DNA of 64,000 nucleotides from Tubulanus polymorphus. Lineage: Eukaryota; Animalia; Nemertea. Below the pieces are notes generated by a model. That model saw only the letters and a list, made by a program, of their open reading frames with translations, had not been told where the DNA came from and did no database searches. Below, one piece after another: positions 11,372-48,759 of the stretch; the stretch's first letter is position 1, and each line of letters begins with the position of its first letter. The stretch is from NCBI RefSeq assembly GCF_964204645.1, contig NC_134034.1:4562914-4626913 (forward strand), read 5' to 3'. The position numbers were made by a program, and so were the translations under genes.

Positions 11372-14300
11372 GCCTGCAATTGTTCGAGCCTCAACGTGGA
11401 GCAGGGTTGGTTAAAAGCGAAGTCAAACACGAGCCTACATATAGCGAAGTAGAGACCCAAACCAATTAACGGAATTTTGTGCTGCTTGCTTCTGTGACTA
11501 CTTAAAACTCTTAAAAGAGCCTATAACAGTAAGAACAGGATGAGTACACTCAATGAGGAGCCTCGTCCGAACCGCTTTCTGTGGAGGGACGAGCTGCTAT
11601 ACAGCCTCTGGGAAGCAACTGACACATTGTTTGCACGAGGACTGTGGAGTGGTAGAGGATGCTCAGACAAAGATATCGAGCGGGAATGGCTGAAACTACA
11701 TCCAGAGCTGACTGACAGAGCAGAACGCCGGGTCACCAATCAAGTGGAGGACGGAGATCAGGACGAACCCGCCACGTGGGCGGACGCCTAAGAACCCAAC
11801 CCCACCGGGAAGTGAGGATACAGGAGAAATCCCAGCGATCAACCAACCGGCACAGCGACGGCAAAGGAGGGAGGCCAGGAGAAATCAGGGTGCAGTCGCC
11901 GCCGTGACTACGACCACCCCAGAACTCACGGCCGATCTCCCGGGGGGCACACCGAACTCGAAGGGCGAAGCGCCGACGCACCGCTCCTAGAACCGGTGCC
12001 ACCTGTCACACTTAGCCATGAGGAAGAGGGGGATGAGGAACCCCCTCAAATCGAGTACGTAGGCGAGTTAGAGTTGGAAGGTGGTGGGGCAGCTGTGGGC
12101 CCAACGTTCAAGGAAAAGGAGTGGAGCAAGAGCCTCCAGCTCGCGTCCGAAAGTCGAAACAGGCGATCCCAAGGCCGAAAAGGCCAATTGATGGACCCGT
12201 TTAGACTGGAGTGCGCTAACGCGGCTTACGCGTCATACTGGGACCAGGTGCAGCATAGAGGTCCAGATGAGCAAAGCCTAGGAACGTACGCCACCGGGAT
12301 CTATGCACTTAAGCGCTGGAAAACCAATAGCCCGAGTCAGATCAAAACCCGAAACCTAGCAACCAGAACTCAATAGTTAACAGACCAAGTCGCAGCGCTC
12401 GGCAGGAAGTTGGGCAGAGCACCATCGCATTAAAGCAGGCACGAAGCGCACAAAAAGACAGGAGCGCAATGCGAAGGGGGTGTGCCACAAGGTTGGGGGC
12501 AAGCCCCTGACTCTGAACAGCGTCCTCCGCCTAATCGGCTCTCTCCGAGCCAAGATGAAAGTGCGCCAGCGCCAACTCACCGAGGCAAAGAGAGAACTGA
12601 CCAAAGCGGAAACCGAACTCAAGTTCGAACAGAGGGGACCCGCCATGTTTGACGACAAACTGGAACAAAACGGCAAAAATCGTCTACGGCTGAGTTCCGA
12701 GAGTTATGGAATGGTGTGAGCGGGACCGAGAGGGTCACGGACGTGAGGTCCTTGCACATCGCGAGGTGGGCCGAAATATCATCGCGACCAGTACCTGAAG
12801 ATAGCACGAATGTCCTAGGAGTCATCGACGGGTACTGGGATCGCATCCTGAGCAATTTGCCAGCCTGGAAAGCACCGGGCCCCGACAGCATCCAAAACTA
12901 ATGGTGGAAAAAGCTCCCGGCTTGCCGGGATGCCCTAAAACAAGTAGTCGAAGGTGCCCTTAGGGGCGAGCTAACAGTTGACGATGTCTTCTGTGGCGGC
13001 CGAACGGTAACGTTCCACAAAAAGGGGGACGAGGCCGATCCAGCGAACTACCGACCAATTGCCTTCCTGAACACGATGTACAAGATTACTACGGGTGTAA
13101 TGGCGAAGTAGATCACTGATCACTCAATCGCGACAGGTATTCTACCGGAAGAGCAGAGGGCACTGCGAAGGGGCTGTAGGGGGACGCTTGACTGCCTGCT
13201 GATGGACCAGTCCATACTAAAGCAGGCGGCCTGGATTGATTTCAAAAAGGCGTATGACAAGGTCCCTCATGACCTTATCAAACACGCAGTAGAAACAATC
13301 GGCGCAACTCAATGGTTAAATGAATCCCTTAGCGAGATCATGAGACACTGGAACGTTGTGTTTGAGCAAACTGGCAAGTACGGATTTGAACGCAGTGAGA
13401 GGCTACACCTGAGGCGAGGGCTTCTCCAGGGCGACGCCCTGAGTCCGATACTCTTCTGTATTGCCATCGCGCCCATTTCAACGGCGTCAGATGAGCATAC
13501 GGCGGGGTTCAAGACGAACGACGGAGCCAGGTTGACCCATTTTGCTTATATCGACGACATCAAGTTGATACAGCCCAACGAACCCGCGCTGCATGTGACG
13601 GCCAGGGTGTGCGGAGATGCTGCGGAAGCTTGTGGGATGGAACTAGGCTACGAGAAATGTGGGGAAGCCCACATGGATCGTTAGGGCGGAGTGATGACGG
13701 AGGGGCAGACAATGCGCCACTGCCAGTGTATGGAAGAGGGAGCATGTACACCTACCTGGGAGCGCCCCAGTTGCTTGAAACCTTCATGGGTGACCTGAAG
13801 ACGAAAGTCAAAGACCACCTTTGCGCCAAGGCGAAGGCAATCTGGGGATCGACGCTCAGTTCCAACCAGAAAGTTACCACGCACAATGCCGTGTGTATGG
13901 GTGCCTTGATGTACTACTGCACGATAGGGTCGTGGTACCGCACAGATGCTGATGAAATTGATAGCTCGCTGCGGAAAGTGATGAGACAGAACGGGGCACT
14001 GTCTAATCACCAGTCGATCGATAGATTATATCTACCCAGGGGAGAGGGCGGACTCGGGCTCCAGTCTGCTTGGTACGTACTGACGCAAACCGCTGTGGGT
14101 GTTGCCAAGTACGTACTACAGTCTGAGGACCCATTCGTCAGGAAACTGGCGGATGTGTTCTGCTATGTGGCTAAGTACAACAAAGACAATGACAACGTGG
14201 TCCGTGTAGCGTTAAACGAGCAGGCGATGAACGCACCATTTGATCAGAAGACACGAAGGATGCGGACATCTTGCCAACCAAGAACGACATCAAAGCCGGC

Positions 14301-15272
14301 ATCACCGGGGAAGTCCTGAGACAGAATTAGGGCAAAGACGATTCACGGGAAGTTCTGGAAGGCGGAGAGGGGCAACGCCACCTTTGCATGGCTGACCACC
14401 AAGTCGAGGAATTACAATCGGAAACGGTGTGTGATATAATGTCGATGCAAGATGGAACCGTCCGGACTCCCTACTGGCAAAACCGGTTTGGCACCCGGGA
14501 CTCACCAATGTGCCACGCATGCGGCGCAGTGGTCGTGACGATTGCACATATAATATCAAAGTGCTAGAAACACAGTTGGGTTACACATAAGACACTTCAT
14601 GACGATGTTGCACGAGCCTTGTACAAGATCATCGTAAACCAGATCGGGATCAAAGTACAGGTAGACGAGGGTAGTGCTCCGCCGGACGTGGTAGAGGGCA
14701 AAGTTGAACTGCGCCGGGACCCGCCGATTCCAACGGATAAGAAAATAGAGGCTAGGAGGCCGGACATTCTCCACAAAGATAATGAACGCAGGCTAAGGAT
14801 CACCGAGGTGGCGGTGGCACTAGACCATCCTAGTTTCCGAACGGTTCCAGGAAAAGTACAACAAATACCTCCCACTGAAGAACCAGCTAGGTCGACTCTT
14901 TCCAACGAACAAAGTCGTAGTGTGTCCTGTCAGTATCAGTGCGTTAGGTAACACGCTCATGCTCGAAGAAAACCAAGACTGGGCTGGAGATCTCTGCGCC
15001 CTGGATCGCCGTAGTGCGATTCAGGTTATGCAGAGTGCCGCGCTGACGGGTTCAGTGAAGGCCCTAAAGATGCACATTGCAGGGTTCTAAGCTCATCACC
15101 GATGAGCGTTGATTCACCGATTGGGTAGGAGAGCTGACACGGCTGCTCTACGCGGGAAGGAAGCCTGGCGTGCATGCCAAGGGCCTACCGAACGCAACAA
15201 CCCGGTATTTCCTTTTCTACTTACACAGAAGTCCGAATACCAATGCCGGACACTATGAGAAGACTATTATTA
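11372..15272 (+). mobile_element. R4/Dong-clade non-LTR retrotransposon (RT plus restriction-like endonuclease), decayed
   Basis: KAPGPDSIQN, WIDFKKAYDKVPH, RGLLQGDALSP, YIDDIKL, RLYLPRGEGGLGL; CCHC knuckle at about 14510-14565; RRPDI...ITEVAV PD-(D/E)xK endonuclease. GC-rich against the flanks, ends in (TAT)n, several stops and frameshifts. Confidence 0.85.
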
Positions 15273-15926
15273 TGGTTTTTTTCGGAATTCGCAGTGAGGC
15301 CGTTTACAGCGCATTAATCAAATAAAGTACTGTGACTGTAGTGCTTTCTCATCTTCAGCGAGAATAACTGTATCATCCGCATAGAGAATGATAAAAAAAA
15401 ATTCAATAAAGTATCAAGCTCTTGATTACGTTTCGAATTCAGACTTTCAATAATTGTCAGAGTTGGTTTTCCACGAGTGATAAAAAAATCCTCGATATCG
15501 TTTAAGAATAAAGAAAATAGAATGGGTAAGAGATTTTCGCCCTGTCTTAGACCCCTTTCAGCTGCAAAATATTGAGAGGTGCTACCATTAAATTTCATAC
15601 ATGATTTGCCTGAATTGTACATGTTCTCAAGTACTCTTAAAAAATTTCCATCTATACAATTGGCTAATAATTTCCTCCATAACGTTACTCTACATACTGA
15701 GTCGAACGCTTTTTTAAAGTCAACAAAGGCACAGAAAAGTCTTCTACCCTGGCAATGATACATTTCAACGATCCATTTCAGCGTAAAGATATGGTCAAAA
15801 GTTGAATACTTCGATCTAAAACTAGCTTGAGCCTCACTTATAATATTATTTGCCTCTAGGAAAGTTGACAGTCTATGGTTTAAAATACTCATAAATAGTT
15901 TACCTAGGCAACTTACTAGGGTGGTA

Positions 15927-16386
15927 CCTCTGTAGTTATCAGGGTTAAAGGGGTCGCCAATTTTTTGAAAATAGGTTTGATAATGCCTACAGACCACATC
16001 TCTGAGATTTAATAAATTTTGTAATATATTTATATAAATATATATTTATATAATTATTTTGTAATTTATTCGGATATTGGCTAAACTTCAATAATTCATT
16101 CGTAATTCCATCAATGCCTGATGCTTTGTCGTTTTTAAGTAGGGAAATTGCTTTAACAACCTCTGTAGTTATCAGGGTAACAGGGATCGCCTTTCTTTTT
16201 GAAAATAGGTTTGATATTGCCTACAAACCACACCTCTGGGACATGGCCAGTTTTAAGTACTAGATTGAATAAATTTTGTAATATATTTACTCTGTTCGGA
16301 TATTGGCTAAACTTCAATAATTCATTCGTAATTCCACCAATGCCTGATGCTTTGTTGTTTTTAAGTAGGGAAATTGCTTTAACAAC
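15927..16386. repeat. Tandem duplication of ~230 bp inside the LINE
   Basis: cctctgtagttatcagggt...gtagggaaattgctttaacaac occurs twice; the first copy has a deletion and an AT-rich filler. Confidence 0.8.
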
Positions 16387-17847
16387 TTCATCAGTGGTTA
16401 TATCACAGTTTAAAGTACAATTGTTGCACACAGGATGATCAACCAAATCTGGGGATTCACTGACATCATTCATTACATTGTCAACATTATCAAAATCATT
16501 TAACTTCCTAAAATGTTCGAGAAAAATATCTATATCAACATCGCCTTACTTATCTTTGGTCCCATTATCGGAGTTAAGCATTGACCAATATCTGTTTGGA
16601 CCATTAATTTCACATTCTCTCAGTTCTTTAATAAATGCTTCATTTTGTATTTTCTTACTTTGTCTTATAACTTTTTTATGCTCCTTAGATGCCTTCTTAA
16701 ATGATCCAAAGTTAGAAGGCGAAGGGCAGCCCCTATATCTATCTCTCCTATAATTATATCCTTTCTGTGCATCTCTGCAGTATTTGCGAAACCAATTGTG
16801 AACTGTCTTTTTCCTGCTATTACTTTTTCTATGATACATCAAGTTACATTCTTCAGCACTTTTTAATAAAGAAGACACAAATTGTTCAGTAAGATCATTT
16901 ACATTATCCGGAGATTGATTGTCTATGTTCTGCAGCCCATTCAGTAGCAGTTTGTTTAAATCCATGTCGCATAGTTTTGACTCGGCCCTCATGAAAAATT
17001 GATTTGATTTATTGTTATCCCACCTAACTGCAGCTTTTTCATTGATATGAGTATTATTATCATTAGCACTAGTTGCATGTCTGGAATGTGTATTCAACCA
17101 CAGCTGAGCTACCATTAGCGCCATCTATCCAGCATAAATTGAAGCTTTTGCCAGCTTTTAGAGCCAATATATCATTTTGGCGTTGCCTATTTTGTGACTT
17201 AAATAATGAATATGAAGAACCCTGATCAACTTTTGACATTTGCGGTGACGGTAAACTGAAATTCCAAAAACTGAACGGTAAACTGAAAGGCCCAAATAAA
17301 GTGAAAGTCGTCTTTTGGGAAAATGGGTGTAGAAGCAAATAATCTATACTAGGCTTAAGATGTGGATTAGGATGGGCTGATGGTTTGGAGGGTTCTGTTA
17401 CGTAGCCTATAGACCTGCCCCTGTAAAGTGGAACAGCGTCTTAATTTTCTAGAGCGCCCATAATTTTTGCAACCGCCTATTTAAGTCCATTAAAGTCACA
17501 TTATCAACTCAGTGTTTTCGTATTAGCCTGATTGTTACTACTCGTGGGTACCCTGTACTATATGAATTCAACAATTGCAATTCATAAAGACTACTTGAGA
17601 CTTTTGGCCACATAAGAGTTTATAAACTGTTGTCAGTGAAATTAGCTTTCATTTTGTAGATTCCCACTGTAGAATCATTTTTTGATGACTAACCACATGT
17701 AGGTCTCAAGATCAGGTCTCATAATAATTTCTAAATATATCCCTTTCCCAGAATTGTAAGCTCTCACTTAAATATTCCATATTCAAACACAATGAGTCCA
17801 CTTAAAACCAAAAGGCTCTGCATTATTGCCATTGCATAGTTGATGCC

Positions 17848-18429: not shown

Positions 18430-19310
18430 AGATTGCAATACCAATGTCAACTGGAAAACTGTTTAATTTCTTTTTTCATATTGTTCATAATTAGACAATC
18501 TATAACATGTGTTACATCTTGTGTTGAATATTTTTAACTTAATATTGACCCCAAAGAAAACATTTTTCGTCTTCATTTTGAACATTAATTACTACTTTTG
18601 TAAAAATATTCACATCTGTTGTGTATAGTGAAACATTTTCGATATTTTGGGATTTTGATTTTTTTTCTGGTTTTATTAGGAAAAGTTAAATCTAAAAATA
18701 CTATTTCATCTAGTGATAAACCAGGACCTACGCAATATCTTTCTTCAATACGTGTTCTAAAATTCATTAATTTCTTTAATATAACTTCCATTTGAACTTT
18801 TGAATATGATGTGTTACTTTTTCATCATATTTAATAAATATAACATTACCAGCTAAACAAGTTTAAGAATATTCAACATCTGTAACAAAATTCATAATAG
18901 TTTTCATTAATTCTAAATGATTTTCAAAATCCTCAACTGTTCAATCATTATGAAATGTAATAATTAATGCAGCTGGTTCAACTTTCTAGCTAAATGATTC
19001 AATGATTTCAAAATCATCCTCATCATATCTAATGAATTTATCTAGTCATTGATATTTTTCATAAAAGCCTTGTCTGTCTTTGTAGTTTTAATGGTTTTTT
19101 CCCATTGTTTTTTAGCAACGAAATATTCGTTGCCTAAAAACATTTTACTTATATTCTTTTTATGTTTTAGAGAATCTAACTGTCCCTTAAATTTCTTTTT
19201 TAATATATTCATCACAAATATTGCAATAAATGTCATATAATTTATAGAATATATTTTTTTCATCCGAATTTAATTTGTCAACATCTATTTTTTTATGTTG
19301 ATGCGATACA
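18430..19310 (-). pseudogene. Diverged fragment of the N-terminal region of the same Polinton PolB family
   Basis: IEERYCVGPGLSLDEIVFLDL matches IEERYFEGSGLTLNEIIYLDL of the 23589 ORF; LDSLKHKKNISKMFLGNEYF matches LESQKHHQNLSNNVLGKDYF. Confidence 0.75.
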
Positions 19311-23529: not shown

Positions 23530-23593
23530 GTTTCAGATCAGAGGGCGAGACACCACTCATCACCACAAGTAATTTTTTTTCCTAATAAATGGG
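23530..23593 (+). repeat. Left terminal inverted repeat of copy 1
   Basis: gtttcagatcagagggcgagacaccactcatcaccacaagtaattt (46 bp) matches the reverse complement of 41924-41977 apart from an 8-bp duplication there; imperfect similarity extends through ATAAATGGG. Confidence 0.9.
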
Positions 23594-26500
23594 GGAGAAT
23601 GAACACCAGACAGAAAACAATAATGTTAATAAAAATCAATATTATTGCCAATATTGTAAAAAATACATCGATACATCTCATAAAACACGACATGAAAAAA
23701 CTGCAAATCATATAAAAAATGTAATAAATTTTGAAACTCCAGAATATTCCAATGAAAGAAAAGTAAGATTAGAAAATATGAATGTGGATGAAATAAAATG
23801 TGAAGTTTGTAATGAATTTATAGTAAAAAGGAATTATAATAGACATCTCGAATCACAAAAACACCACCAAAATTTGAGTAATAATGTTTTAGGAAAAGAT
23901 TATTTTAACGATAAACCTCAAAAAGTAAAAAAACCAAGTTCAAAAACTAAATCCATTTCAAATAAACCTCACATGGAAAATGTTAGAAATTATATTGATT
24001 CACTAGAAATAAAAGATACAATTGAAATTTTAGAAACATTACATAGTAAAATTGGTCCTGCAGCTATTATATTTGGATTTTTTAAAGGTACAACAATAGA
24101 AGATTATAGTAAATTTAATGAAATAATAGAAAAAATACTAGATTTGATAACAGATGTTGAATATCCAAAAAATAGTATCTCTGGGAAAGTAAGTTTTATA
24201 AAGTCAGAAGAAAAAATGGATTATAATATTCAAACACTCTCTGAAGAAATAATTTCAAAAACGCAAATAAAAGAGAAGTTAGAAAAAAAATTTAATGAAT
24301 TTAAACGTCATATTGAAGAAAGATATTTTGAGGGTTCTGGCTTAACATTGAATGAAATTATATATTTAGATTTAAATGTTTACAATACAAAAAGGAATAA
24401 AACATCAAAAAGTAATAAAATGTTTAAAAATGATTCAAACTTTACAACAGAAAAGGATATTAAAGCATCATCTTATATTAAATTACCATTTACAACAAAA
24501 GCAGTAATAAATGTTCAAAATGAAGATAATAAATGTTTTCTATGGTCAATTATTAGTTGTTTACATCCAACACAGGAAAATGTTTGTAGAATAACAGATT
24601 ATCGGAAATATGAAACATTATATAAAATTGATCAATATCCAGTAACTATAAAAATGATTCCTAAAATAGAAAAAGTTAATAATTTAAAAATAAATGTATT
24701 CGAATTAATGCAATTACCAAAGACAAAAGGTGAAAATATTAAAGATTATACATTGGAAGCTTTATATTTAACAGAATATTATGATGATGAAAATGTTATG
24801 GATTTGTTATATTACAAAAAAGATGAAAATGAACATTATATGTGGTTAAAACAAATTGATTTATTCTTTAGAACAACAGAAAGTGATCATCATCGTAAAA
24901 TTTATCTATGTAGAAAATGTTTATCTAAATTTATGACTGAGAATGCGTTACTAAAAGATAAAGAATTATGTGATAATAAAGATTTTTGTAAATTAATAAT
25001 GCCAACAAAAAAAGATTGTAAGTTGAAATTTACTAATCATAAATTTAAAAATATTGTTCGTTTTGTAATTTATGGGGATTTTGAATCGTTGAATAAAGAA
25101 TTAACTGATCAAGATAGAAAAGAAATATATAACAAAAAGCAATTATTAAAATCAATGGATAAAGGAAATGAATTAAATGAAGACACAATACAAGACCCTC
25201 CAATTATAAATACAATTTAAAAAGTTCACCAAAGAGCTGCTGCTTATGGAATTTATATAAAATCAAATTATCCTGAATTATATGAAAGTCAATATATTTC
25301 TTTTAGAGGTGAAAATGTAGTTAATGATTTTTGTGATAAAATGATTGAATTAGAAAGTGATTTTACAAAATTATTAAACAAAAATAAAAGAATAGTTATG
25401 ACAAAAGAAGATGAAATTGATTTTAATTATGCAACTCATTGTTGTTATTGTGAAAAACATTTTTATTCATTTGATAAAAAAGTTAGAGATCATGATCATT
25501 TAAATTCAAAATATCGTGGAGCTGCTCATGAAGATTGTAATTTACAAGCTAAGAAAGTTAATTTCGTACCAATATTATTTCATAATTTATCAGGCTATGA
25601 TACCCATCTATTTATAAAACAATTATCGGGAAAATTGGGTGCAATTAATCAAGAAATAGAACAATATAATGCTATGCATGGTGTAAATGTAAGAAAATAT
25701 GATTTTAAACTATTAGCTAAAACATCTGAAAATTATATTTCATTTCAATTTGGTTGCATTAGATTTTTAGATTCTTATAGATTTCTAGCAAGTTCATTAG
25801 GTAAATTATCAAAAAGTTTAGTTGATAATGATTTTGTTATAACTCGATATTATTATCCAAATGAACAAGATTTTAAATTATTGAGATATAAAGGCGCAAT
25901 TCCTTATTCATTTTATAAAACACACAATGATTTTAATGTAACAGAATTATTAAAAGGTCAATTTTATGATCAATTAAAAGAGGAGTATGTGAAAGACGAA
26001 GTGTTTAATAGAACATTAAATATTTGGAACCATTTTAAGATGAAAAATCATGGCGAATTAGTTGATTTATATTTAAAATCAGATGTTATGATATTGGCTG
26101 ACATATTTAAAAAATTTAGAGAAGTTAATTTGAATCATTTTAATGTTGATCCTTGTTATTGCTACTCTAGTCCTGGTTTAACCTGGCAATGTGGTTTAAA
26201 ATATACAAATGTAGAATTAGATTTATTAAAAGAACCAGATATGGTTTTATTATTTGAAAAATCAATTAGAGGTGGAATTAGTGGTGTTATGGGAGATAGA
26301 TATTTTAAAGCAAATGATGAATATAAATTATTATATATTGACGCCAATAATTTATATGGTTGGGCAATGATGCAACCTCAACCATATAAAAATTTTATAT
26401 TAACAGAAGTTGAAAATGATGATAAAACTAATTGGGAAAGCGCAATTATGAGTTTAGAAGATGAAGCACCAATTGGTTATTTCTTTGTAGTTGATTTAGA

Positions 26501-28652
26501 ATATCCTGAAAATATAAAGTTTAAAACAAGAAACTTACCTTATTGCCCAGAACATTTAACTGTAAATGATAGTTATTTAAGTGAATACCAGAAGAAAATA
26601 AAACCGAAAGATCATGTTTTTACAGAAAAATTAATACTTACTCAAAATAATAAATACAATTATATTGTTCATTATAGAATGTTAAAATTTTATCTAAAAC
26701 AGGGAATGAAATTAAAGAAAGGACATAGATATATTGAATTTAATCAATCGAAGTGGTTAGAAAAATATATAGATTTCAATACTCAACAGAGAACCATATC
26801 AAAAATAGATTTTGAAAAAGATTTCTTCAAATTAATGAACAATAGTTTTTATGGTAAAACATGCGAAAGTATTAGAAATAGAAACGATATTGAATTAGTA
26901 AATAATTCTGAAAGATTAAGACATTTACAATCAAGTCCTAGACATTTAGGAAATAAAAGATTTGAAGATTATTTAACAGCAGTTAAATTAAAAAGAACGT
27001 CAATGAAATTTAATAAACCTATATTTATTGGTTCGACTGTTTTAGAAATATCAAAATTATTAATGTATGATTTTTATTATAATGTTTTACAACCACTTTT
27101 GGGGAAAAGCATATTGAAATATTATATTTTGATTCTGTAACAGCTGACAACCCATATTATTAAAATGTAATGCTAAAATATTGATAAGAAGAATTTCAGA
27201 AATAATTCCAAAACAAAATGAATGTTATATTTCATATGGTGAAAAAGAATTAATACAAATAAATGGTTTAATGGATGTTTGGACAAGAAATGGATGGAAA
27301 AAATTAAAGAATATTATTAGGCATAAAACAAATAAGAAAATCTATAGAGTTAGAACTAAATTAGGATTTGTAGATGTTACAGAAGATCATAGTTTAATTA
27401 AACGAAATGGCGATGAAATAAAACCAACTAATATAAAAATTGGAGATGAATTATTACATAAAAGATTTTTCCAAAGAATAAATCATATGTCATTTGATGA
27501 AATAATTGATAATATTTATAATATAGAACCCGAAACATTAGAAGAAAAAGAATATTTTATCAAAGGATTTTTCATGGGAGATGGTTCAGCAGGTGTGTAT
27601 AATTATGTTTGGGGTAATAAATATTGTTGGTATTTATGCAATCAAGACTTAAAATTATTAGAAAGAATAAAGAAATTCTGTGAAGAAGTTTATCCAAATA
27701 AAACATTTAGAATCATGGATGTTATGAAATCATCAGCAGTTTATAGAATACTTGTAAATAATCCTAAAGATTTTGCTATAAAATATGATGATGAATTCTA
27801 TATTCATGCAATAGTTAAAAGTAATACTTCAACAAAAGAAAAGATAGTTCCAGATTATGTATTAAATGCAAAAGATAATTTAAGAAAATGGTTCTTCATT
27901 GGATTCTACGCAGCAGATGGTACTAAAAAATTTACAAATGATAAAAAGATAACCTTTGCACAGAAAGGAAAAGTTGCTATATCAGGATTGAATATATTAT
28001 GCAGTTCATTAGGATTTAATATGAATATAGAATTAATTCAATCTAAACCAAATTATTTTAATTTAAGGCATGTAGAAAAAGATTTAACTGAAGAAGTTAA
28101 AGATTTATTTGAAATATATAACCCAACTGACTATGTTTATGATTTATCAACAGATGATGGAACATTCAATTCTGGGTTCTCATTAATCCAAAAAATACCG
28201 ATAGTTACATACTAAAAATCAAGACAAATGATATAACAAAAGACTTAAAAACATTAAAACATCATTTTGATTTTAGCAATTATCCCAAAGATCATGAACT
28301 ATTTAGCAATGATAATAAATAGATTCCCGGTAAATTTAAAGATGAACTAGGGGGTGATGAAATGATTGAATTTGTTGGGATAAGAAGTAAAATGTATAGT
28401 TATAGAACAAAAGATCATGAAGCTAAAAAGTTAAAAGGAATAACAAAACATGTGGTTGATAAACATATAGAATTTCAAGATTATATAAAGTGTTTATATA
28501 ACTCAATTGTAATGAAACACAAAATGAATTGTTTAAGATCAGAAGATCACGAGATGTACATTAATGAAGTTGAAAAAACTAGTTTGAATCCATTTGATGA
28601 TAAAAGGCATATTTTAGATGATGGTATAAAAACATTACCTTATGGTTATTAA
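23589..28652 (+). pseudogene. polB: Protein-primed family B DNA polymerase with intein; disrupted by frameshifts and a stop (ORFs 23589-25220, 25341-27140, 27181-28215, 28362-28652)
   Basis: N-terminal C2H2 fingers; INVQNEDNKCFLWS; ExoI IYGDFES; Endonuclease VII/HNH-like RDHDHLNSKYRGAAHEDCN; ExoII FHNLSGYDTH; IRFLDSYRFL; ExoIII YLKSDV; SIRGG; motif A YIDANNLYG; motif B KLMNNSFYGK; motif C YFD|intein|TDS; GKFKDE; RSKMYS; KLKGI; DDKR. Confidence 0.95.
27134..28196 (+). other. Intein with LAGLIDADG homing endonuclease in PolB motif C (copy 1)
   Basis: Block A starts SVTAD immediately after YFD; block B VTEDHS; LAGLIDADG motifs FIKGFFMGDGS and FFIGFYAADG; block F YVYDLSTDDGTF; ends KN followed by TDSY. 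One frameshift near each end; ~355 aa when restored. Confidence 0.93.
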
Positions 28653-29965
28653 AACATAAAATCAATATCATCATAATCGAAATCACTATTGGCTTCTTCA
28701 TTTTCATTTAATTTTTTAGGTTCTTCTTCCATTCCATTTTTCTGATTTACATAAAGTTCTATCTTGTTCCACATTTCATCTCGCTCTCTTTGTTTCTTTT
28801 TGTTTGTTAATTCGTCAAATGGAATTATAATATCTAGGTTTAAATAATTTACAATCTTATTTAAATAGAATTCATAATTTATTGAATCTGTTATTCTATT
28901 TTCCAAATGATACATTAATATTTGTTTGAATATTTTTTTTTATATTTTTCATATCTTCTTCTGTTAATTTAGGTTTTTCATAATAATCGTTAAGTAATAA
29001 ATATAAATACATTTTCTTTTGTTTTGTGTTAAATGTTGATGGAATAATTGTTTTTATAATATCTTTTTTAATTATTTCACCATTTTTATTTTCTATTATT
29101 TTTATTTTTTCAAGCCATTGCATATATTCTGGTGTATGATCTTCTATAGAACATATTTTGAAATTTCATCTAGATAATTTAATTTTGGATCTATGAGAAA
29201 ATTTCTAGTTTTTTCTTCACCCAATAAATTCTTTTGCCATCCACATTCATTACAAAATAACACAGTACCTTCTTGTTTTAAGGTCGCATAACTACATTGT
29301 GGGCATTTTTGTTTATAATTTATTGGTAATAGATCTTCATTAAGCTCTTGGTATTTTCTTACGTTTTCTTTATGTTTTATTGTTCTATTATGTAGATTTG
29401 AATTACTTGTTGTAATAATCAATTTACAATATTTACAATGATATGTTTTTCTTGTTAATTCATTATATTGTTTTTCTAACTTTTCAACTGTTTCTTTATT
29501 ATCTGGTAACGTTTTCTCATATTTTATTTTTTCTAATACATTATGTTTTCTTTCGTTGAATTCAGTTTCAAATTTATTAGAAATTTTATCTATATGTGCT
29601 TTACGAAATTGATGATTCTCCCAATCTTCTATATTTTCAGGGTTATATTTCATTCGACAAGGCTCACAGAAATGATCTTTTATATTATCCGTATCATAGA
29701 ATAAGAAAGGTCTTTTCCAAATAACTTCAGGTTCAACTTCAGCAGAATTACTATTACTTTCATTACTACCAACATTAGCCGTTGCGCCATTAATTCTACA
29801 CTTCTCTGAATGTTTTTTAACATAATTTCTTGAAAATAATTTATTACATTTTGGACAGTTTAGTTTAGGGGGTTTATAATTTTCATCATGTTTTTTCATA
29901 TGTCGAGCCATATTACTTTTTCTTAGAAGTTCACCACAAATTTCGCATGCTATCTTCTCATCCAT
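28649..29965 (-). pseudogene. Multi-zinc-finger protein (one gene split into three ORFs by frameshifts)
   Basis: CEICGELLRKSNMARHMKKH, CPKC, CKYC..H..H, CPQC..CNEC. Copy 2 reads through the junctions between these three ORFs in frame. Confidence 0.8.
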
Positions 29966-31041: not shown

Positions 31042-31669
31042 TAAATGAGTGATAATAAGTGGATAATAACTGGATTATATAATGGAGCATTACTATCCGT
31101 TGGAACTGTTGGTTATTCAATGGTATTAAAAAAAGTATTTAAAATGGGAAGTGTTAATGTTGATAGATTTGATATAAATGATATTTTAAAATTAACATTA
31201 GCAGTTACTTTATCCAGGGAAGTGTGATGAGATGGAATACGGACGCTATTGTGCAGCTCTTGTCGAATGTGCGTTGTAATTGCCCTAAAGCCGATAACGG
31301 TTCGTCGGCGAGCGCTTTGTTACGTAACGCGCCGATAAGCGATAACCAGCGAGATCGGGAATCTCCGTAATAATTCAGTTGTTTCCGAATATCGGTTTTT
31401 CATCCCACAATAAACTTATATAAAAATTCCTCTGTAAACTGGTTAAACTCAACACCTGATTTCCCCTCATCAATTTTAGTCGATCAACTTGTATTCACAA
31501 TTGTCTTAAATTTAAGTGCCCCCTAGTTTGTCTCTTAACTGCTTCTCTTTAATCTGTTTTAGCGTGTAACTGTTTCTACGTTAATTTTCCTTTAGTTAGT
31601 ATCATCTCTGATTACTTGAATTAGTCTCTTTGTCTCTGGATTGTATATATCTCTCATAATTTCTGTATT

Positions 31670-31720
31670 ATTCATTATTTCTGAAGATGACTATTAGGAC
31701 ATAGACGAAACGTTGAATAA
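31670..31720 (+). ncRNA. Degenerate hammerhead-like motif in a Penelope pLTR-like remnant inside the TIR transposon
   Basis: CTGAAGA-tgactattaggacatagac-GAAACGT, preceded by a pyrimidine-rich tract as in the Penelope pLTR at 60730-61090. Confidence 0.45.
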
Positions 31721-32334
31721 ACTACTAACATTTTTGGACTTTTTCGTTATCATTGTGCGATTCTCTCTACATCGCTTCAGACGGATATAGTGTTTTATCA
31801 ATCGTGATATCGGTTCTTTCTGCTGTATTAAAATGGCAACGGTTGTCAACGAAATTATAAATGATGACGATTTTGACGATCTATTCTTTGATAGTGACGA
31901 ATTGGTTCAGATCGATACGGAAATATTACGGGAATCCGCTGGATCAGGATCAACTAATTCGGCCGATTCTAGTGAGTGTTATTCCTTTTGAATCAATGAA
32001 ATATCGGAATAGTTTCCACCTAATTGCAGGCACTTTATTCTTTCCTTTTCTTTTTCATATAGGTACTTCTCAGGCTCAGCTGACCAGAGACTGCGAACTG
32101 AACACGAGAAAACACACATACAGGTATTTTTTAAAATTTATTTTTATAATCAATACAATCCTTTTAGGTTATAAAATAATAAACGAATACAGAAAATAAT
32201 ATATAAACATAATATAAAAAATCCAGATAAGTACATGTTAAAATAATAATCATTATTATTATCTTCGCAGGAACACTATATATTTGGAAAAGGCTATGAC
32301 TGAAGTGATTAACCATCGAGTATTTAAATTCAGT

Positions 32335-32679
32335 TCAAATGGAATGGCAGCAGTACATTATGGAAAATCGATCGATAAAATTTTGACTACAAATACGTCG
32401 CCGTCCAGACTTGGAATTAACCAGTGGTTTACATGTCCATTGTTTTAATTTGATAGTCACAGGGACAGTTTTTTTAACGTTTTTGTTCTTACGCCATTTT
32501 TGTAATTTGACACGACACATATTACAGATATATATCGGGTACTGTTCAGTATCATCATCAAAATCAATGTTGAACAACTCCTTCACATGGCTTTTGAAAT
32601 TATTTTTATCGTTAGGACGACGATCCGGAGGTTTCGCATTTTTTCCACACAATCGACAAAGATCCATGACTAAAAACAA
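32335..32679 (-). CDS. Zinc-binding module resembling the RAG1 N-terminal / Chapaev 'Chapa' domain; truncated transposase N-terminus
   Basis: LCRLCG-x~23-LFNIDFDDDTEQYPIYICNMC. Confidence 0.6.
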   Translation of the reverse strand: MFLVMDLCRLCGKNAKPPDRRPNDKNNFKSHVKELFNIDFDDDTEQYPIYICNMCRVKLQKWRKNKNVKKTVPVTIKLKQWTCKPLVNSKSGRRRICSQNFIDRFSIMYCCHSI

Positions 32680-33456
32680 GAAAAGGTTAATTAAATGAGA
32701 TTGCTGATGCTATTTAGGCAACTTGGATTATATGGGGGACAATAATTTGTAGGCCTAATGTAAGCGTTATTAAGTAACATTATTATGTAGTAAATACACA
32801 TTTTAAAGATCATACTTCGTGTATATGTTTGTGTCGTAACATAGCAACATGACGTCAGAAACGAAAGCTGCGCGAGTCTGGGCCGAAATATTTGACATCT
32901 TCAAGGCCCAAATAACGCTAAACCCGGAATCGGAACGAACTGGCAAAAACATATGTTTAACACATAAAAACAGACTTTAATCACAATATAAATACTTAAT
33001 GTTCCGATACCGGGTTTCGGAGATATAGAAGAATAAAAATACATACCTTTTTGGACAAATTTTACGAGAAATTGTTGAATTTCAGCCGATTTTCTAGAGA
33101 AAAATATGTGTATACACAGCCACTTCCACGTTGTTCAATGAGCTGCAGTGCGCATGCGTAGTATCGATCGCAGAACATTTATCGGGCTAAAACAGTATTG
33201 CGGGTTGTTCTGCGACCGAATCAAAGTTGATGTTGACTGGTGTTCAGCTGGTAACACACACTCGATAAGCGTAGCTTACTGCTGTTGCGGTAACCTTTGA
33301 TGTACGGGCTGAATTGAATAGCCTACATCCGGCAATTAAAAGCGTCCGTATTCCATCTCATCACACTTCCCTGCTTTATCTAATTTAACTATTGATTATT
33401 TAGAAAAACAAAAATATATTCCTCCCATATAAATGCGTAATTATTTTACTAAATAA

Positions 33457-37212: not shown

Positions 37213-38459
37213 ACGAGTGGGAGTTATATAAGTCCTTCTAAGATTTCTAGAATATCTAATGCTATTAAAGCAGAAAGATCACATCATATAATTACTCATT
37301 ACCCTTCAAATATTAATCCCGATGAAACTTTATACGTTAGAATCCCTCGATTAACACAAAATACTTTTTATGTCCCAAATAGTATTTATTTATCAGCTGA
37401 TATAAAAGTAATTGGTCATGATAATAATTATGTTGTTGATAATGTTGGGAGATATTTGATTAAAAAATTAACTATAAAGATTGGTCCAGAAACAGTTTTC
37501 TCATCATTGATTATAATTTATTTATGCATTATAAAGATTTATGGTTAACTAAAGAAAATAGAAATAATATGATATTTCAGGGTATTCAATCGGAAAACCA
37601 TAATAAATTAAGATCTGAAGCCAATAATGCAGTAGTAACTAATGCTGTAGATAATTTGATTAAAAAGATTTATCGAAGCAAATATAAAATTCCATTAGAC
37701 TTTGAATTGATAAATAATAATGCACCTTTATATAAATACGCAATTCAAGAAGATATTATATTTGAGATAACATTTGCTCCTGTAAATGAAATTGTATTAT
37801 CTAGCGTTGTTAAAGATATGGGTTATAAATTATCAAATATATGTTTAGAATATGACACAGTAACTAATGAAAATATTGCTAGCACAATTCAAACTCAATA
37901 CAATCAAGGAGTTTCATTATTATATGATTATATTGATAAATTTAAAACTGTAACTATTAATGCAAATGATGAAATAATTAATGAGAATATTAACTTCCCA
38001 AGAAGATCTATTAAAGGTATATTAATATTTTTTACCATTGCAACATATTCTAATGGCGCAATAAAGGTAGATAATTATTATAATCCTGAAATAACAAAAG
38101 TAGAAATAACTATCGAAGGAATAGCAAATAAAATATTTTGTCAAGGAATGAGAATGATTGATCAGTGGCCAGAAATTAGAAAACATTTTATGAATGAAAA
38201 AATAAAATCATTTGAAAATTGTAATATTAATCAAATTGATTATTATACCGGTAATAAATATGCATTATGGTTAGATTTTAGAAGAACAGAGGATAATTCA
38301 TTGCATGGTTCTGGGAAAAAACTACAGAACACTAAAGATGGAATACAATTATTTATGAAAAAGAAAAAAGGAAGCTTAAATTTCAAAATGCATATTTATA
38401 TTATATCTGATGCGCAATTAAATATTGTAAATTCACAATTAGATAGTATTCAATATTAG
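37213..38459 (+). pseudogene. Major capsid protein (double jelly-roll, inferred); start ATG>ACG and one frameshift
   Basis: About 415 codons, beta-strand-rich; PSNINPDETLYVRIPRL, NVGRYLIKKL, LEYD, PRRSIKGIL, ALWLDFR. Lies directly upstream of integrase and ATPase. Copy 2 has ATG. Confidence 0.75.
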
Positions 38460-38489: not shown

Positions 38490-39617
38490 ATGGGAGGTAA
38501 AAAAACTCCTAATACTAAAGAACAATATTTAAGAAATTTATATTACAACCCTGAGAGTTCGGTTGCTTATTCTTCTACTAAAAATATATGGCGTCAAGTA
38601 AAACAAGATAAATTAGATAAGATAATTCCACACAATTTAGTTAAATATAAAGATATAAATGAATTTATGTTAGAACAACCAACATACACAACACATAAAA
38701 AAATTGTTAGAACATATAAAACTCGTAAAACTATGGTAAGTTATGTAGATCAACAGTGGCAAGGAGATTTAATTGATATGAAAAATGTTAAGAAAGATAA
38801 TGATGATTATTGGTGGTTATTGAATATATTTGATATTTTTAGTCGTTATGTATGGAGTTTCCCACTTTATAGAAAAGATGCTGTACAAACATCAAATGTT
38901 TTAAGAAAATTTCTTTCGGATGATAAACTAAAACCAGAAAAAATACAATTTGATGATGGAAAAGAGTTTGATAATTCACTTGTTCATGAACTCTTAGATA
39001 ATCATAATATTAATTATTTTTCAACAAAATCGGATAAAAAAGCAGCAGTTGTTGAACGATTTAATAGAACATTAAGAACAAGAATGTGGAAATATTTTAC
39101 AGCAAATAATACTTTTAAATGGATTGATGTTTTACCAAAATTGATAGAAGGATATAATAATTCTTATCATTCTTCTATTGGAATGAAACCTATTGATGCT
39201 AGAAAACCTGAAAATGCTGAAATTGTTTGGAATAATTTATATGGAGCATTTCTTGTAGATGATTTTGGTGAACGTAAATTTAAAGTTGGTCAAAATGTTA
39301 GAATTTCTAAGTATAAAAAGATATTTGACAAAGGATACGATCGAAATTTTACTAGGGAAATATATAAAATAAAAAAGGTAATAACAACAAAACCATATGT
39401 CTATAAATTAGAAGATTTAGATGGTGAAGAAGTTGATGGTTACTTTTACGAAGAAGAATTAAGTTTAACTACTGAAAATCTAGAACAAGAATATAAAATT
39501 GAAAAAGTATTAAAAACAAAAACTATTAAAAGAAAAAAATATTCTTTAGTAAAATGGGTTGGATGGCCAGATAAATTCAATGAATGGATATTATCAAGTA
39601 AAATTAAAACTATATAA
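38490..39617 (+). CDS. int: Retroviral-type (rve, DDE) integrase with C-terminal chromodomain
   Basis: QWQGDLIDM, QFDDGKEF, VVERFNRTL, YNNSYHSSIGMKP, KFKVGQNVRISK; chromodomain YKIEKVLK...LVKWVGWPDKFNEWI. Intact. Confidence 0.95.
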   Translation: MGGKKTPNTKEQYLRNLYYNPESSVAYSSTKNIWRQVKQDKLDKIIPHNLVKYKDINEFMLEQPTYTTHKKIVRTYKTRKTMVSYVDQQWQGDLIDMKNVKKDNDDYWWLLNIFDIFSRYVWSFPLYRKDAVQTSNVLRKFLSDDKLKPEKIQFDDGKEFDNSLVHELLDNHNINYFSTKSDKKAAVVERFNRTLRTRMWKYFTANNTFKWIDVLPKLIEGYNNSYHSSIGMKPIDARKPENAEIVWNNLYGAFLVDDFGERKFKVGQNVRISKYKKIFDKGYDRNFTREIYKIKKVITTKPYVYKLEDLDGEEVDGYFYEEELSLTTENLEQEYKIEKVLKTKTIKRKKYSLVKWVGWPDKFNEWILSSKIKTI

Positions 39618-40226
39618 ATGAATAAGGAATTATTTATATTTGAGCCTCATAATATGTTAATATCTGGTGTAACAAATTGTGGAAAAACTTATTTTATATT
39701 AAATTTATTAGAAACTGTTTATGAAAACTATTTTGATAATATAGTATTATTTTGTCCAACATATGAATTTAATCAAACTTATGATAGAAATATTACTAGA
39801 AATAATAAATTTATTATATTAGATCCTAAAACAGTAAAAGAAAATTTAGATAATTGTATTAAAATAGCAATTGATATTTATAAAGGATCAAATACATTAT
39901 TCATTATAGATGATTGTGCTAATCTACATGATTCAAAAGTTAGAGAAAGTGAGTTATGTTATTTAGCTTTCGCTGGGAGACATTTCGGGATAACAACATG
40001 GGTTTTAAATCAAAAATATAATTCAATTGTTAAAGACTTTAGAGAAAACATTAGATTTCTAGTTTTATTCTACAACAAAGATAGAAAATCGATGAAAAAT
40101 GCACTTGAGGAAAATGATATCATTCCACGTGATTTACATAATGAATATATGGATAAGTTGAAAAATATTAAAAGATCAAAATTACTATTTAGATTACAAC
40201 TCCCATTTAAATATGAATTTATTTAA
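39618..40226 (+). CDS. A32/FtsK-HerA-like genome packaging ATPase
   Basis: Walker A SGVTNCGKT, Walker B FIIDD, GRH motif, Q and R-x-N motifs. Intact. Confidence 0.92.
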   Translation: MNKELFIFEPHNMLISGVTNCGKTYFILNLLETVYENYFDNIVLFCPTYEFNQTYDRNITRNNKFIILDPKTVKENLDNCIKIAIDIYKGSNTLFIIDDCANLHDSKVRESELCYLAFAGRHFGITTWVLNQKYNSIVKDFRENIRFLVLFYNKDRKSMKNALEENDIIPRDLHNEYMDKLKNIKRSKLLFRLQLPFKYEFI

Positions 40227-41640: not shown

Positions 41641-41910
41641 TTAAATCCTTCTAAATTTTTTTAATTCCTCTGTACTCAATGAAACCCATTTATCAGGTAA
41701 AAATACTTTAAATTCTCGCGATGTACTAACATTACAGTAGCTTAAATTCGCTGATACTTTCTCTCCATATTTAGTTTTTATCTTTTCTAATTTCAATATT
41801 TTATGTTCAATTTCTTTTGTAACATCAATTAACTTTTTTATTTCAAATTGTTTTTTTGCTGGTTTTATTCTGTTATTTATTGTTGCTAAGAATGCTTTTC
41901 TATCTCCCAT
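41641..41910 (-). CDS. Small terminal protein transcribed inward from the right TIR (TKYG...VFLP motif)
   Basis: 89-aa ORF whose ATAAATG start abuts the TIR. Confidence 0.6.
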   Translation of the reverse strand: MGDRKAFLATINNRIKPAKKQFEIKKLIDVTKEIEHKILKLEKIKTKYGEKVSANLSYCNVSTSREFKVFLPDKWVSLSTEELKKFRRI

Positions 41911-41977
41911 TTATAGGGAAAACAAATTACTTGTGGTGATGAGTGGTGTCTCGCCCTCTCGCCCTCTGATCTGAAAC
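41906..41977 (-). repeat. Right terminal inverted repeat of copy 1 (extra 8-bp tcgccctc unit)
   Basis: Reverse complement of 23530-23593. Confidence 0.9.
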
Positions 41978-44199: not shown

Positions 44200-44705
44200 T
44201 TTCATTAGGATTATATCTTTAAATTCATTATCTAAGTCACATTGAATTGCAAAATCTTTAAAATTTCAATATATCACATTGAATTCCAATACATGCATTT
44301 GATTTATTACTATTAAAGATACTTTGTTTATTATCAAAATTAAAATAATTTAATAGTGGATTTTTAATTCTCAAGGTTCACAAATGATTAGCCTTTGAAA
44401 GTATTATATCACTTCGTTAAAATGAATTTTAAGAATAATTGTTATGGTTACATCTAATTTAGCTTCATTATTTAACACTGTGAAAATATTTTAGGATTTT
44501 CAACACCATTATCTAAAGTATCTATTAGTCCAATAATTAAATATGTTTCATTTAATAGTATTTGATTGATTATAGTGATATTATCAATATCATATTGTCT
44601 TCCATACACAAATTTTTATGCTGAGAAATCATTTTTAATGTTGAATAGTGAAAATAAGTTATTAGTTCCTTTTATTTCAAATTTGAATTCGGTTTCTTCT
44701 TTCAT
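44200..44705 (-). pseudogene. Decayed inverted paralog of the 46134-46799 ORF
   Basis: Minus strand MKEETEFKFEIKGTNNLFSLFNIKN vs MKTEEEEPNFKIEINETNKSFSQFYIKN; shared ttagatactttagataatgg and gcaattcaatgtgacttagataatga segments. Confidence 0.7.
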
Positions 44706-45556
44706 CTATATATAGCAAAATTTTCATTAAATTGATTTTCAAGATTATTTATATTTTAAAATCTAAATTATTTTACTCACACTTTAATATCTTAAAAATC
44801 TAAATTCTTTTACTCACACTTCACTAACACTTTGTATTTTAGAAACTATTGATATATCTAGCGATGAGAGGGACGACTAAGAAAGTGAGACTTCTTTAAG
44901 AATAATATAAGAATTCTTAGTTCCTTAATAATTTTGATAATTTCCTTTAATAATGCTTTAAGAATTCTTGGATGATAAAATTAAAATACGAACAATATTA
45001 TAACTAATTTATTTTTTCTAAATCAATTATCATTATATATTTCATACAATATTTTATCATTTTTATATATTTCACAGATCATTGTATTATCTTTTACTAT
45101 TCTTTAAATAAAAAGTATGAAAAATCTATTTTCATCAATCGTTAATTACCGGTTACTTTTTATCAATTATTTTACATATTTTGTTTTTCAAATTCTATAA
45201 CATGATGTCATTTTTAATCTTTACCTTTATAGATAATATAAAAGATACCTGATCATCATTTAAAACATCATATCTTCAATTAATTCTATTAAATCCATCT
45301 GGTAGATATGTTCCAAATTTATAATTATACATTAAACCTTCATATTCCGAATGTGTAAATTTATTTCCATATTTTGTTGTAATAATTTCAATATCTGTGA
45401 TTAAATATCTTTTTATTCAATGGGTATTTACTTAACTTTATATCAATATAATACTAATGGATAGCCCGTGAAGACCACCATTTTTCAACGTAGAACTTCC
45501 TACCCATTAGTTCATTGCATACGAATTGAGTAGGAGCATTTTAAAGTGGCCTATTA

Positions 45557-45745
45557 GGCCTATGTGGTGTAATCACCCGTGTCCAAAGAGACCATATGGG
45601 ATCTCGGGTCCGAGTTCACATGTGCCCGAAAAAACTGGGGCCCCTAATCACATACTGAAAATTTCTCCTTCCCATGGAGGCCAGTAATAGGGGTAATAGG
45701 CTTTCAGGCCAAAGGTCGAACGGTCGAGCTCATTAAAAAACAAAA
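45557..45745 (+). mobile_element. Possible tRNA-derived SINE
   Basis: GC-richer island with weak A-box (tggtgtaatc) and B-box (ggtccgagttc) and an A-rich tail. Confidence 0.25.
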
Positions 45746-45850
45746 CATTAAAATAATAATAATTTCTACTTGAATTAGTCGGGAAACTCATAAAAAATGA
45801 AAAATAATTCTCACACACTCGAATTTATTTTTCATTTTCTACTCGCTAGA

Positions 45851-46060
45851 AAAAGTGTGAGTAAAGTGTGAGTGAAATAATTCATATTTTAACAGATTTC
45901 GAGTAAAAATATAAGTAAAATAAATGGATAACTAAAAGAATATAAAAGTGTGAGTAAAGTGTGAGTGAAATAGTTTATATTTTAAACATATTTCAATATT
46001 TATATTTGTATGAGTTAGATTTTTAAACATTAAAAGTGTGAGTAAAGTGTGAGTGAAATA
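45851..46060 (+). repeat. Three spaced 29-bp direct repeats aaaagtgtgagtaaagtgtgagtgaaata
   Basis: Copies at 45851, 45944 and 46032; inverted partial copies (tttactcacactt) at about 44772 and 44809. Confidence 0.85.
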
Positions 46061-46133
46061 ATTCATATTTAAAACATTGAATATTTATATTTATATGTGT
46101 TGGATTCATTTTAATAAAAGTTTTGTTATTAAA

Positions 46134-46799
46134 ATGAAGACAGAAGAAGAAGAACCCAACTTTAAAATCGAAATCAATGAAACCAATAAATCATTTTCAC
46201 AGTTTTACATTAAAAATTATATTTCAGCAACAAATTTAGTGTCCGCAAGACATTATAAAATCGATAATATTACTATGATTAATCAAATATTATCAAATGA
46301 AACATATTTAATTATTGAACTAGTAGATACTTTTGATAATGGCGTTAATAATCCTAAATTGTTCAATACAGTTTTTAATTTTAAAGGAACTTTAGATGAA
46401 AACATCATTAATATTCTTAAAACTCCTTTCAATGAAAGAAATGATGATATAATACTTTCAAAAGATTACAATGATTTGATTGACTTAAGAATTGAAAGAA
46501 GACAATTATATTATTTCAATTTTGATAATAAACAAATTATCTATAATGAAAATTCATCAAATATTGGAATTCAATGTGAATTAGATAATGAAAAATCATA
46601 TAAAGATATTGCAGTTCAATGTAATTTAGATGATGAATTTAGAAAATTCAATCCTTATGAAAAAGTGCATTGTTATTGCGGAGGTAAATATTTAAAATCA
46701 CATAAATCAAAAAATTATGAAACAATTAAAGGAGTTAGTTTAACAATACCTTTTTTTCTTTACCGAATTAACCGTGTATTTACTAAGATAAATCTTTAG
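46134..46799 (+). CDS. AT-rich virus-like hypothetical protein with a C-terminal CxCG finger remnant
   Basis: Open frame 46077-46799 with likely ATG at 46134; repeated IQC(E/N)LD; HCYCGGKY..SHKSK. Confidence 0.5.
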   Translation: MKTEEEEPNFKIEINETNKSFSQFYIKNYISATNLVSARHYKIDNITMINQILSNETYLIIELVDTFDNGVNNPKLFNTVFNFKGTLDENIINILKTPFNERNDDIILSKDYNDLIDLRIERRQLYYFNFDNKQIIYNENSSNIGIQCELDNEKSYKDIAVQCNLDDEFRKFNPYEKVHCYCGGKYLKSHKSKNYETIKGVSLTIPFFLYRINRVFTKINL

Positions 46800-47221
46800 T
46801 GTACCGGGGAATCGTAGGCCTAAACTAAACAGGCCGTAGAGATATGGCGGAGAAAAGCTGTTATGTCGACGAGGTATCAAAATAAAAGAATATATTACTT
46901 TATTCGCGGGCTTCAACCATTTATCAATACTCTATATTTCCTACAGTACATACCGATCATTGTCAAATGCACAAGGTATTTACTAAATACAAGTATATAA
47001 CACACTCCTATCCGTATGCTGGACTCACACTTGACATTCGGAGTAAGCGTTCGCTCTGGGGGAAAGGAGATCGTTCGCTGTGTCGCTTGAAGTGTTTATC
47101 GAGTTTTACGCGACCTTAAGGCTTTAGTATGGTGGCTGATAAGATAAAAAAACATGAATATGCAAATGAGGGCGACATTACGACAAAACGACAAAACTAA
47201 AATAACGCGAGAAAACAATGA

Positions 47222-48438: not shown

Positions 48439-48740
48439 TTTCTAGCTGTTCTCGCGGTTTCATAAATCTTAAATAATCTAATAATTTCATCTGATTTCAT
48501 TGTATCTAATTCATTATAAGTTAAATTTTTACCGATAAAATTTTTACATTTTCCAGATGCTATTAATATTTCTAATTGATGTTTACAATAAAGATGATAT
48601 TCATAATTATTATTTGTTGTAACATTATTTAAAGCACCATCATCTGGAGTTAATTTTGTTTCTGTTATTCCTAAATCATCTAAAGTTTTTTCAATTGGAA
48701 CATCACCATTTTTAGATTTTATTTTCTTTTCACCTCCCAT
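48439..48740 (-). pseudogene. Truncated homolog of the 40508 gene
   Basis: MGGEKKIKSKNGDVPIEK...; cut by the LINE fragment. Confidence 0.8.
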
Positions 48741-48759
48741 TTATATAACAAAAAAATTA

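Follow-up and report, generated by a model that had tools for sequence, protein, structure and literature searches.

The window, that is, the whole 64-kb stretch of DNA analysed here, carries two mobile elements lying tail to tail, each with a protein-primed PolB (pPolB) gene that is split by a long insert. Element 1 is ∼18.4 kb long, a 2.2-kb transposon included, and is bounded by terminal inverted repeats that a repeat search placed at 23530–23596 (left, plus strand) and 41903–41977 (right, minus strand); the repeat arms match over 57 nt at 93% and can be extended to ∼70 nt. Its plus strand carries the pPolB gene (23589–28652; PF03175, E = 7.6e-17), which is broken by stops and frame breaks, a retroviral-type integrase with a chromodomain (38490–39617; rve, E = 6.1e-09; Chromo, E = 0.00096) and a packaging ATPase (39618–40226; Pox_A32, E = 1.7e-13). 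On the combination of pPolB, rve integrase, packaging ATPase and terminal inverted repeats, we class the element as Polinton-type. We keep to this label for three reasons: no 6-bp target-site duplication was seen beside the repeats, the exact ends of which are uncertain in this decayed copy, a five-motif scan gave no maturation protease, and the candidate capsid ORF at 37464–38459 had no Pfam, useful NCBIfam or PDB match and a single-sequence model with a pLDDT of 32. The window's class of pPolB also contains an endonuclease VII-like domain, which is separate from the insert described below.

The second copy occupies 48449–64000 on the minus strand. Its pPolB gene (61615–64000, minus strand) is likewise broken and ends at the window edge, and its integrase, ATPase and capsid-like genes are 95–97% identical to those of element 1. 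The 2.2-kb transposon of element 1, missing from element 2, lies at 31215–33373 and has 36-bp inverted repeats, a 7-bp duplication (CTTTATC) and a zf-AD ORF (32335–32709); element 2 harbours a Penelope-type retroelement at 58001–61163, with RT and GIY-YIG in a 631-aa ORF and an 867-bp inverted repeat (99.3%). Elsewhere in the window lie two decayed non-LTR retroelements (11816–17124; RT matches at 13112–13681 and 15317–16045), a decayed fragment (18517–19218) that is 64% like the 5′ part of the pPolB gene (24577–23806), an inverted pair at 44200–46662 (74%, with 93-bp repeats) and a 245-aa ORF of no known kind at 46062–46799, and a tandem array of 26 copies of 31 bp (47221–48032).

The insert splits motif C of the polymerase between its two aspartates, YFD|TDS. 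It covers 27134–28196 on the plus strand (copy 1, 1063 nt) and 62066–63131 on the minus strand (copy 2, 1066 nt), exactly where the original prediction had put two copies of an intein. In copy 1 the Ser codon at 27134 directly follows YFD and the Asn codon at 28194–28196 precedes TDS; frame breaks lie near both ends, and between them a stretch of 347 codons is open (27148–28188). All of the intein motifs that had been listed are present: block A (SVTADTPILL in copy 2), block B T-E-D-H (27379–27390 in copy 1), block F V-Y-D-L (28135–28146), the terminal Asn followed by Thr, and two LAGLIDADG motifs, FIKGFFMGDG and FFIGFYAADG, whose aspartates are encoded at 27580–27582 and 27916–27918, all on the plus strand. 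Copy 1 has Lys as its penultimate residue, a position taken by His, Lys or Ser in relatives.

Profile and structure searches led to the same assignment. The insert matched LAGLIDADG_3 (PF14528) above the Pfam cut-off (E = 2e-06) and Intein_splicing below it (E = 7.6e-07); the NCBIfam intein_Nterm model was weak for the window and above cut-off for two relatives, P0029 and P0032. A structure model built from a 64-row alignment (pLDDT 94.4) adopts a Hint plus LAGLIDADG fold. The ten best rows of a Foldseek search with this model were all endonuclease-bearing inteins, headed by PI-PkoII (E = 5.2e-15), and a wide VIA search returned PI-PkoII at Z 25.6 (rmsd 4.5, 303 aligned), with full inteins at Z 19–26 and mini-inteins at Z 11–14. 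I-DmoI was also matched (Foldseek, TMt 0.72), as befits a pseudodimeric LAGLIDADG fold. The archaeal inteins PI-PkoII (PDB 2cw7/2cw8), TliVMA (7qsu) and PI-PfuI (1dq3) thus share the two-domain fold of the window's insert at 14–21% identity. By every feature of sequence and fold examined, the insert is a class 1 intein, for which splicing and cleavage are predicted, and the call of an intein with a homing endonuclease domain at the pol-c site of a Polinton-type pPolB stands on its motifs, fold and site. A stand-alone Hint domain of the Hedgehog or BIL type was ruled out, the insert having an endonuclease and exact exteins; a spliceosomal or group I intron by the open frame with intein motifs and by the joined form found in a DNA run (below); and chance similarity by E-values down to 1e-135. 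Rfam and tandem-repeat scans found nothing further at the site.

Both window copies are pseudogenes, because each has frame breaks and stops. Neither intein length is divisible by three. In copy 1 the frame breaks fall just upstream of the site, a few codons inside the intein and at its end, and the polymerase has stops in both exteins. Copy 2 had been described as having both junctions in frame, which the sequence does not bear out: the upstream polymerase reads in frame across its 5′ junction, but two stops lie inside the intein, a frame break occurs near its 3′ end and the Asn|Thr junction is in another frame. Residues +1 to +3 of copy 2 read TVA, so the second catalytic Asp has been lost. 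The two inteins are 92.6% identical in DNA, with a dN/dS of 0.33 (p = 4e-05), compared with 0.15 for an N-extein stretch. Their differences are uneven, with 1–4 per 100 nt over the first 700 nt and 12–16 per 100 nt over the last 300, and most of the dN/dS signal comes from these 3′ 300 nt (about 0.15–0.3 for 27854–28160 against copy 2). Because the 3′ 300 nt are far more diverged than the upstream part, the pattern suggests recombination between two diverged intein alleles.

Intact homologues were found among other sequences, which we denote by P numbers. A near-length search with the intein gave 27 matches among 1934 candidates, and a longer search gave 177 among 3786, the best 120 of which were examined. 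The top matches among these 120 were intact pPolBs in which the intein occupies the identical site: the inteins of P0028 (63% identical to the window's), P0029 (48%; in a cluster of 136), P0031 (45%) and P0034/P0035 (40–41%) are all in frame, and P0030 and P0032 are partial sequences. Below the pPolBs, the best 120 held giant-virus-type RNA-primed PolBs, with 29–41% identity over most of the intein. Ser1, TEDH, the block F Asp, Asn|Thr and the first endonuclease Asp are present in all 22 complete pPolB inteins listed, many of which are near-copies, and the second LAGLIDADG Asp motif was matched in 21, the exception being P0031 (FCGFYAADG). Residue −2 of the site varies among pPolBs (F, M, G, S, A or L). 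Across several pPolB lineages these inteins are about 38–63% alike, with intein-less sisters throughout: among the best 120 pPolB extein matches, the intein was present in 3 and absent from 117. Three intein-less sequences, P0219, P0220 and P0222, read YFD|TDSYILKIK exactly as the window does and are 68–69% identical to its extein. P0221, a pPolB 56% identical to the window extein, is labelled Sulfurimonas sp. in UniRef and is probably a binning contaminant.

Outside this group the family occurs chiefly in RNA-primed polymerases. An index-free search added 142 representatives, with RNA-primed PolB exteins in 132, a topoisomerase in one, another type in one and no extein match in 8; none had a pPolB extein. 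Of 160 viral and metagenome loci among the matches listed, 124 were PolBs, 6 lacked an extein match and 30 were unparsed, and no pPolB-type intein was seen among them. Viral contigs scanned with the intein and with P0219 as single-protein queries gave no matches. Members of the same intein family also sit at other D|TD motifs (P0033, P0111, P0113, P0121, P0129, P0134, P0141 and P0123); these are the DxD of type II topoisomerases (DQD|TDG) and a radical SAM protein (WED|TDF), so the family has reached sites that are not allelic but have the D|TD junction in common. A further set of near stand-alone intein ORFs comprises P0002, P0007 and P0179–P0192 (cluster of 55; contigs of 14–825 kb). In six of these 16 the reading frame starts 11 residues ahead of the intein, and its M[NT][KE][ST]QL-type leader does not resemble the pPolB flank; nine end 4–8 residues past the intein. 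They look like the product of intein amplification away from an intact polymerase, possibly by way of a non-autonomous element.

We then compared alleles with and without the intein. Reads of four runs were mapped to 26200–29000. One of these, the DNA run X6, carries the species label of the best-matching organism (0.51 of words), which may be the species that the window comes from or one closely related to it. In X6, 28 reads from 22 starts joined 27131 to 28195, which is the exact intein-less allele. Depth was 207 at the 5′ edge of the intein and 143–259 per bin inside it; the raw ratio corresponds to about one copy in eight without the intein, and the depth indicates a multicopy element unless the genome is tiny.

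A second comparison came from the P0029 cluster, for which 15 members were listed and seven plus and five minus long members were compared. Plus and minus alleles are 98–99% alike (P0161, 95%). Eleven of their 12 fixed differences fall within residues −7 to +44 around the site, and none falls in residues 1–1034 (Fisher p = 3e-15). The plus flank, TDSFVLSVNTKD, agrees in 12 of the first 12 C-extein residues with P0255, P0271 and P0272, which belong to other, more distant lineages and are 74–78% identical to P0029 upstream; with its own minus sisters it shares 7–8 of the 12. P0030 and P0292 show the same flank pattern, whereas the plus/minus pair P0165/P0168 has identical flanks and no trace of co-conversion. 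The flank pattern fits co-conversion of donor flanks or survival of minus alleles whose site has drifted, and either reading requires an endonuclease that was active at some time. Motif C itself varies: among P0214–P0331, D-C-D-S was read in 25 of 118 and D-T-D-A in seven (20 unparsed), and most D-C-D-S forms resemble the lineage of P0029 and P0030. Target escape is a possible explanation of these variants.

The history of the intein was followed in trees of inteins and exteins. The more careful intein tree (LG+G4) contained 56 inteins, 11 from pPolBs and 45 others that we chose from ∼200 parsed; the intein trees were built without InBase, Mimivirus or archaeal reference sequences and have no known root. 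The pPolB inteins formed one side of a branch with support of 92/63, which was present in 189 of 200 bootstrap trees and had a support of 86 in a quick tree of 90 rows. In a quick extein tree of 51 N-extein stretches, intein presence required eight changes and a single intein-bearing clade was rejected (AU p = 0.00014); the rows were author-chosen, so that the eight changes are not a population rate, and shuffled labels gave a similar figure (8.5). Deep splits were concordant in the two trees, namely the window with P0028, P0029 with P0030, and P0032 with P0034/35, which speaks for an old residence of the intein in the main pPolB class. P0031 is the exception. Compared with five other pPolB exteins, its extein matched none significantly (best E = 0.009) and had a much higher PF03175 score, and its polymerase likely belongs to the other of the two pPolB classes, Alpha and Beta, distinguished in the consulted part of Starrett et al. 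(PMC8502044). The P0031 intein nests with that of the window (99/92). An extein without a match combined with a nested intein indicates, for this one sequence on a 5.3-kb contig, that the intein moved between pPolB classes. The original prediction, in which the intein was captured once and taken into one germline, is consequently too narrow, since several pPolB lineages and an unrelated class bear the intein.

Where the pPolB inteins came from is less clear-cut. Among the matches listed, their nearest outside relatives are, as had been proposed, mostly giant-virus RNA-primed PolB inteins at YGD|TDS. All nine complete pPolB inteins of the focused tree have a block G of the form FN[CS]GFPL..N, one residue shorter than in most relatives. 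A similar shortened block G was otherwise seen in 18 giant-virus rows, which we picked through their similar motif; three of six of these genomes looked up are Imitervirales IM_01 in the consulted part of PMC8575486, where the other three are not listed. The IM_01 inteins are ∼39–44% identical to those of pPolBs and share FN[TS]GFPLI.KN with the same shortened spacing, yet they form a separate branch of the tree. The shared C-terminal motif points to a link with marine Imitervirales IM_01, and a giant-virus source is plausible because the intein family is most diverse there. For the proposed direction of transfer, from a large DNA virus or microbe into a pPolB, the trees give no support: the pPolB inteins form a branch of their own and are not nested in a giant-virus clade. 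In the accessible part of their study, Ogata et al. (PMC549080) doubted direct homing between distant pol-c sites, so the first entry into a pPolB may have been ectopic; the presence of the family at topoisomerase D|TD motifs shows that ectopic events do occur.

Three alternatives to our reading deserve weighing, two of which concern its parts. The donor may not have been a giant virus at all, the intein having passed from Polinton-type elements to IM_01 or having come from a third source, e.g. the lineage behind the archaeal-type PolB inteins P0117/P0119/P0132. We regard this as doubtful, if quite conceivable. In its favour, in the unrooted tree the pPolB inteins lie within no giant-virus clade, and they joined the IM_01-type inteins in 4 of 200 bootstrap trees, as opposed to 146 of 200 for a union with the 'other' branch of archaeal-type PolB inteins. 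That branch is long (1.27) and prone to attraction, however, and the union of pPolB and IM_01-type inteins was not rejected (AU p = 0.30). The shortened block G shared by the nine pPolB inteins and 18 giant-virus rows, and the far greater diversity of the family in RNA-primed PolBs (132 of 142 representatives and 124 of 160 listed loci, with no pPolB among them), also speak for the giant-virus donor. A separate question is whether the contig derives from a protist, alga, fungus or cobiont, which would parallel the intein-bearing endogenous viral polymerases of algae. No host gene was identified within the 64-kb window, and the same PolB class occurs also in fungi and unicellular eukaryotes according to the part of Starrett et al. 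consulted (PMC8502044). Against a non-animal host, which we consider unlikely, the Penelope element in element 2 matches Atlas clusters in which 89–98% of members have HTH_animal and the commonest taxa are Arthropoda or Platyhelminthes; an intein-less sister pPolB matches clusters with few recorded taxa, Ctenophora, Mollusca and Arthropoda being the commonest; the named pPolB relatives are from two corals (39–43% identity); and the inserted transposon has a zf-AD domain. The evidence for the animal host of the original prediction is indirect, coming from animal-like mobile elements and relatives, and we judge the host to be, probably, an invertebrate animal.

The third alternative touches the main interpretation, which is that a class 1 LAGLIDADG intein resides at motif C of Polinton pPolBs, that its intact copies are predicted to splice and that it has likely spread by homing. 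We hold this reading with good confidence. Ser1, the block B His, the block F Asp, the terminal Asn and Thr+1 would splice the precursor and restore the polymerase active site; because splicing would rebuild that site, it would be needed for replication of the element, and imprecise loss of the intein would be lethal to the element. Once freed, the endonuclease would cut motif C of a second, intein-free Polinton present in that cell; with an intein-bearing copy as repair template, the cut site would be converted together with a few flanking codons, leaving minus alleles with altered flanks as untouched recipients or escape alleles. The intein would be an old acquisition of pPolBs, most likely taken from, or gained alongside, the giant-virus PolB inteins at the same site; since then it would mostly have followed one pPolB class, with at least one jump between classes. 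Integration of the element would have taken it into host chromosomes, likely those of an invertebrate, where the two window copies then decayed. It could instead be that the intein splices but has lost homing, after a single ancestral gain followed by vertical inheritance, the minus alleles being precise losses or lineages that never had it. The deep congruence of intein and extein trees in the main pPolB class could indeed reflect old vertical descent with repeated loss, and the identical flanks of P0165/P0168 agree with this. Yet plus alleles have the flank residues of other lineages and not those of their 99%-identical minus sisters, the jump of P0031 requires transfer between polymerase classes, and the endonuclease aspartates are kept across about 38–63% identity; endonucleases that no longer home usually decay. 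Inheritance without homing seems to us improbable for these reasons. Collectively, the evidence points to long-standing homing among Polintons rather than recent capture.

To our knowledge, inteins are reported to be absent from animal genomes. As the original prediction supposed, the searchable full-text literature yielded no report of Hint inteins in the polymerases of Polintons, Mavericks, adintoviruses or polintoviruses; InBase, Repbase, subscription journals and bioRxiv supplements lie outside that coverage. The pol-c site, the intein mechanism and endogenised viral inteins in algae are already known. As far as the consulted text of Ogata et al. (2005; PMC549080) goes, the Mimivirus PolB intein and the archaeal pol-c allele occupy the same YGD|TDS motif C site and resemble the window's intein in their Ser start, Thr-His block, terminal Asn, Thr+1, LAGLIDADG endonuclease and length of ∼350 aa; the host protein here is, in contrast, the protein-primed PolB of an 18-kb integrating element rather than an RNA-primed PolB. 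The inteins of Klebsormidium, Tetrabaena and a labyrinthulomycete likewise lie in viral polymerases that an integrated virus brought into nuclear chromosomes (Gallot-Lavallee et al., 2023; PMC10710043, in the part consulted). Those are viral-like polymerases of algae and a protist, whereas the present case concerns a multicopy Polinton, likely of an animal, in which both plus and minus alleles and traces of homing are seen. Endonuclease domains inside pPolBs have been noted before, as HNH and VSR domains of Polinton pPolB2 (Jeong et al., 2023; 10.1101/2023.08.22.554363; Krupovic et al., 2024; PMC11071308), and Krupovic et al. (2024; PMC11071308) suggested that such domains 'result from intein invasions'. 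The consulted portions of these reports describe no Hint domain, in contrast to the complete Hint-LAGLIDADG intein within the catalytic motif here. What is likely new is the host, i.e. protein-primed polymerases of integrating Polinton-type elements, in what are likely animal chromosomes, with traces of homing between lineages.

With the clade of Polinton inteins, the range of inteins comes to include protein-primed polymerases and, should the host assignment hold, animal chromosomes. Homing needs donor and target in one cell, so the intein would be a record of genetic encounters: of Polinton lineages with one another, of one polymerase class with the other and, probably, of Polintons with giant viruses. 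Where intact alleles with and without the intein coexist in multicopy families, assemblies already available allow homing, co-conversion and target escape to be measured directly, and such families are a source of Ser/Thr inteins and LAGLIDADG enzymes with a history of evolution inside eukaryotic cells. More tentatively, at somewhat below an even chance, this may be a homing intein of the animal germline that drives through Polinton copies, selects escape variants (YFD|TDA, YGD|TDA and YTD|CDS), has crossed both polymerase classes and has been amplified in near stand-alone form in one host. If so, metazoan nuclear DNA would harbour a natural homing endonuclease drive, and the intein would mark past co-infection by Polintons and marine giant viruses.
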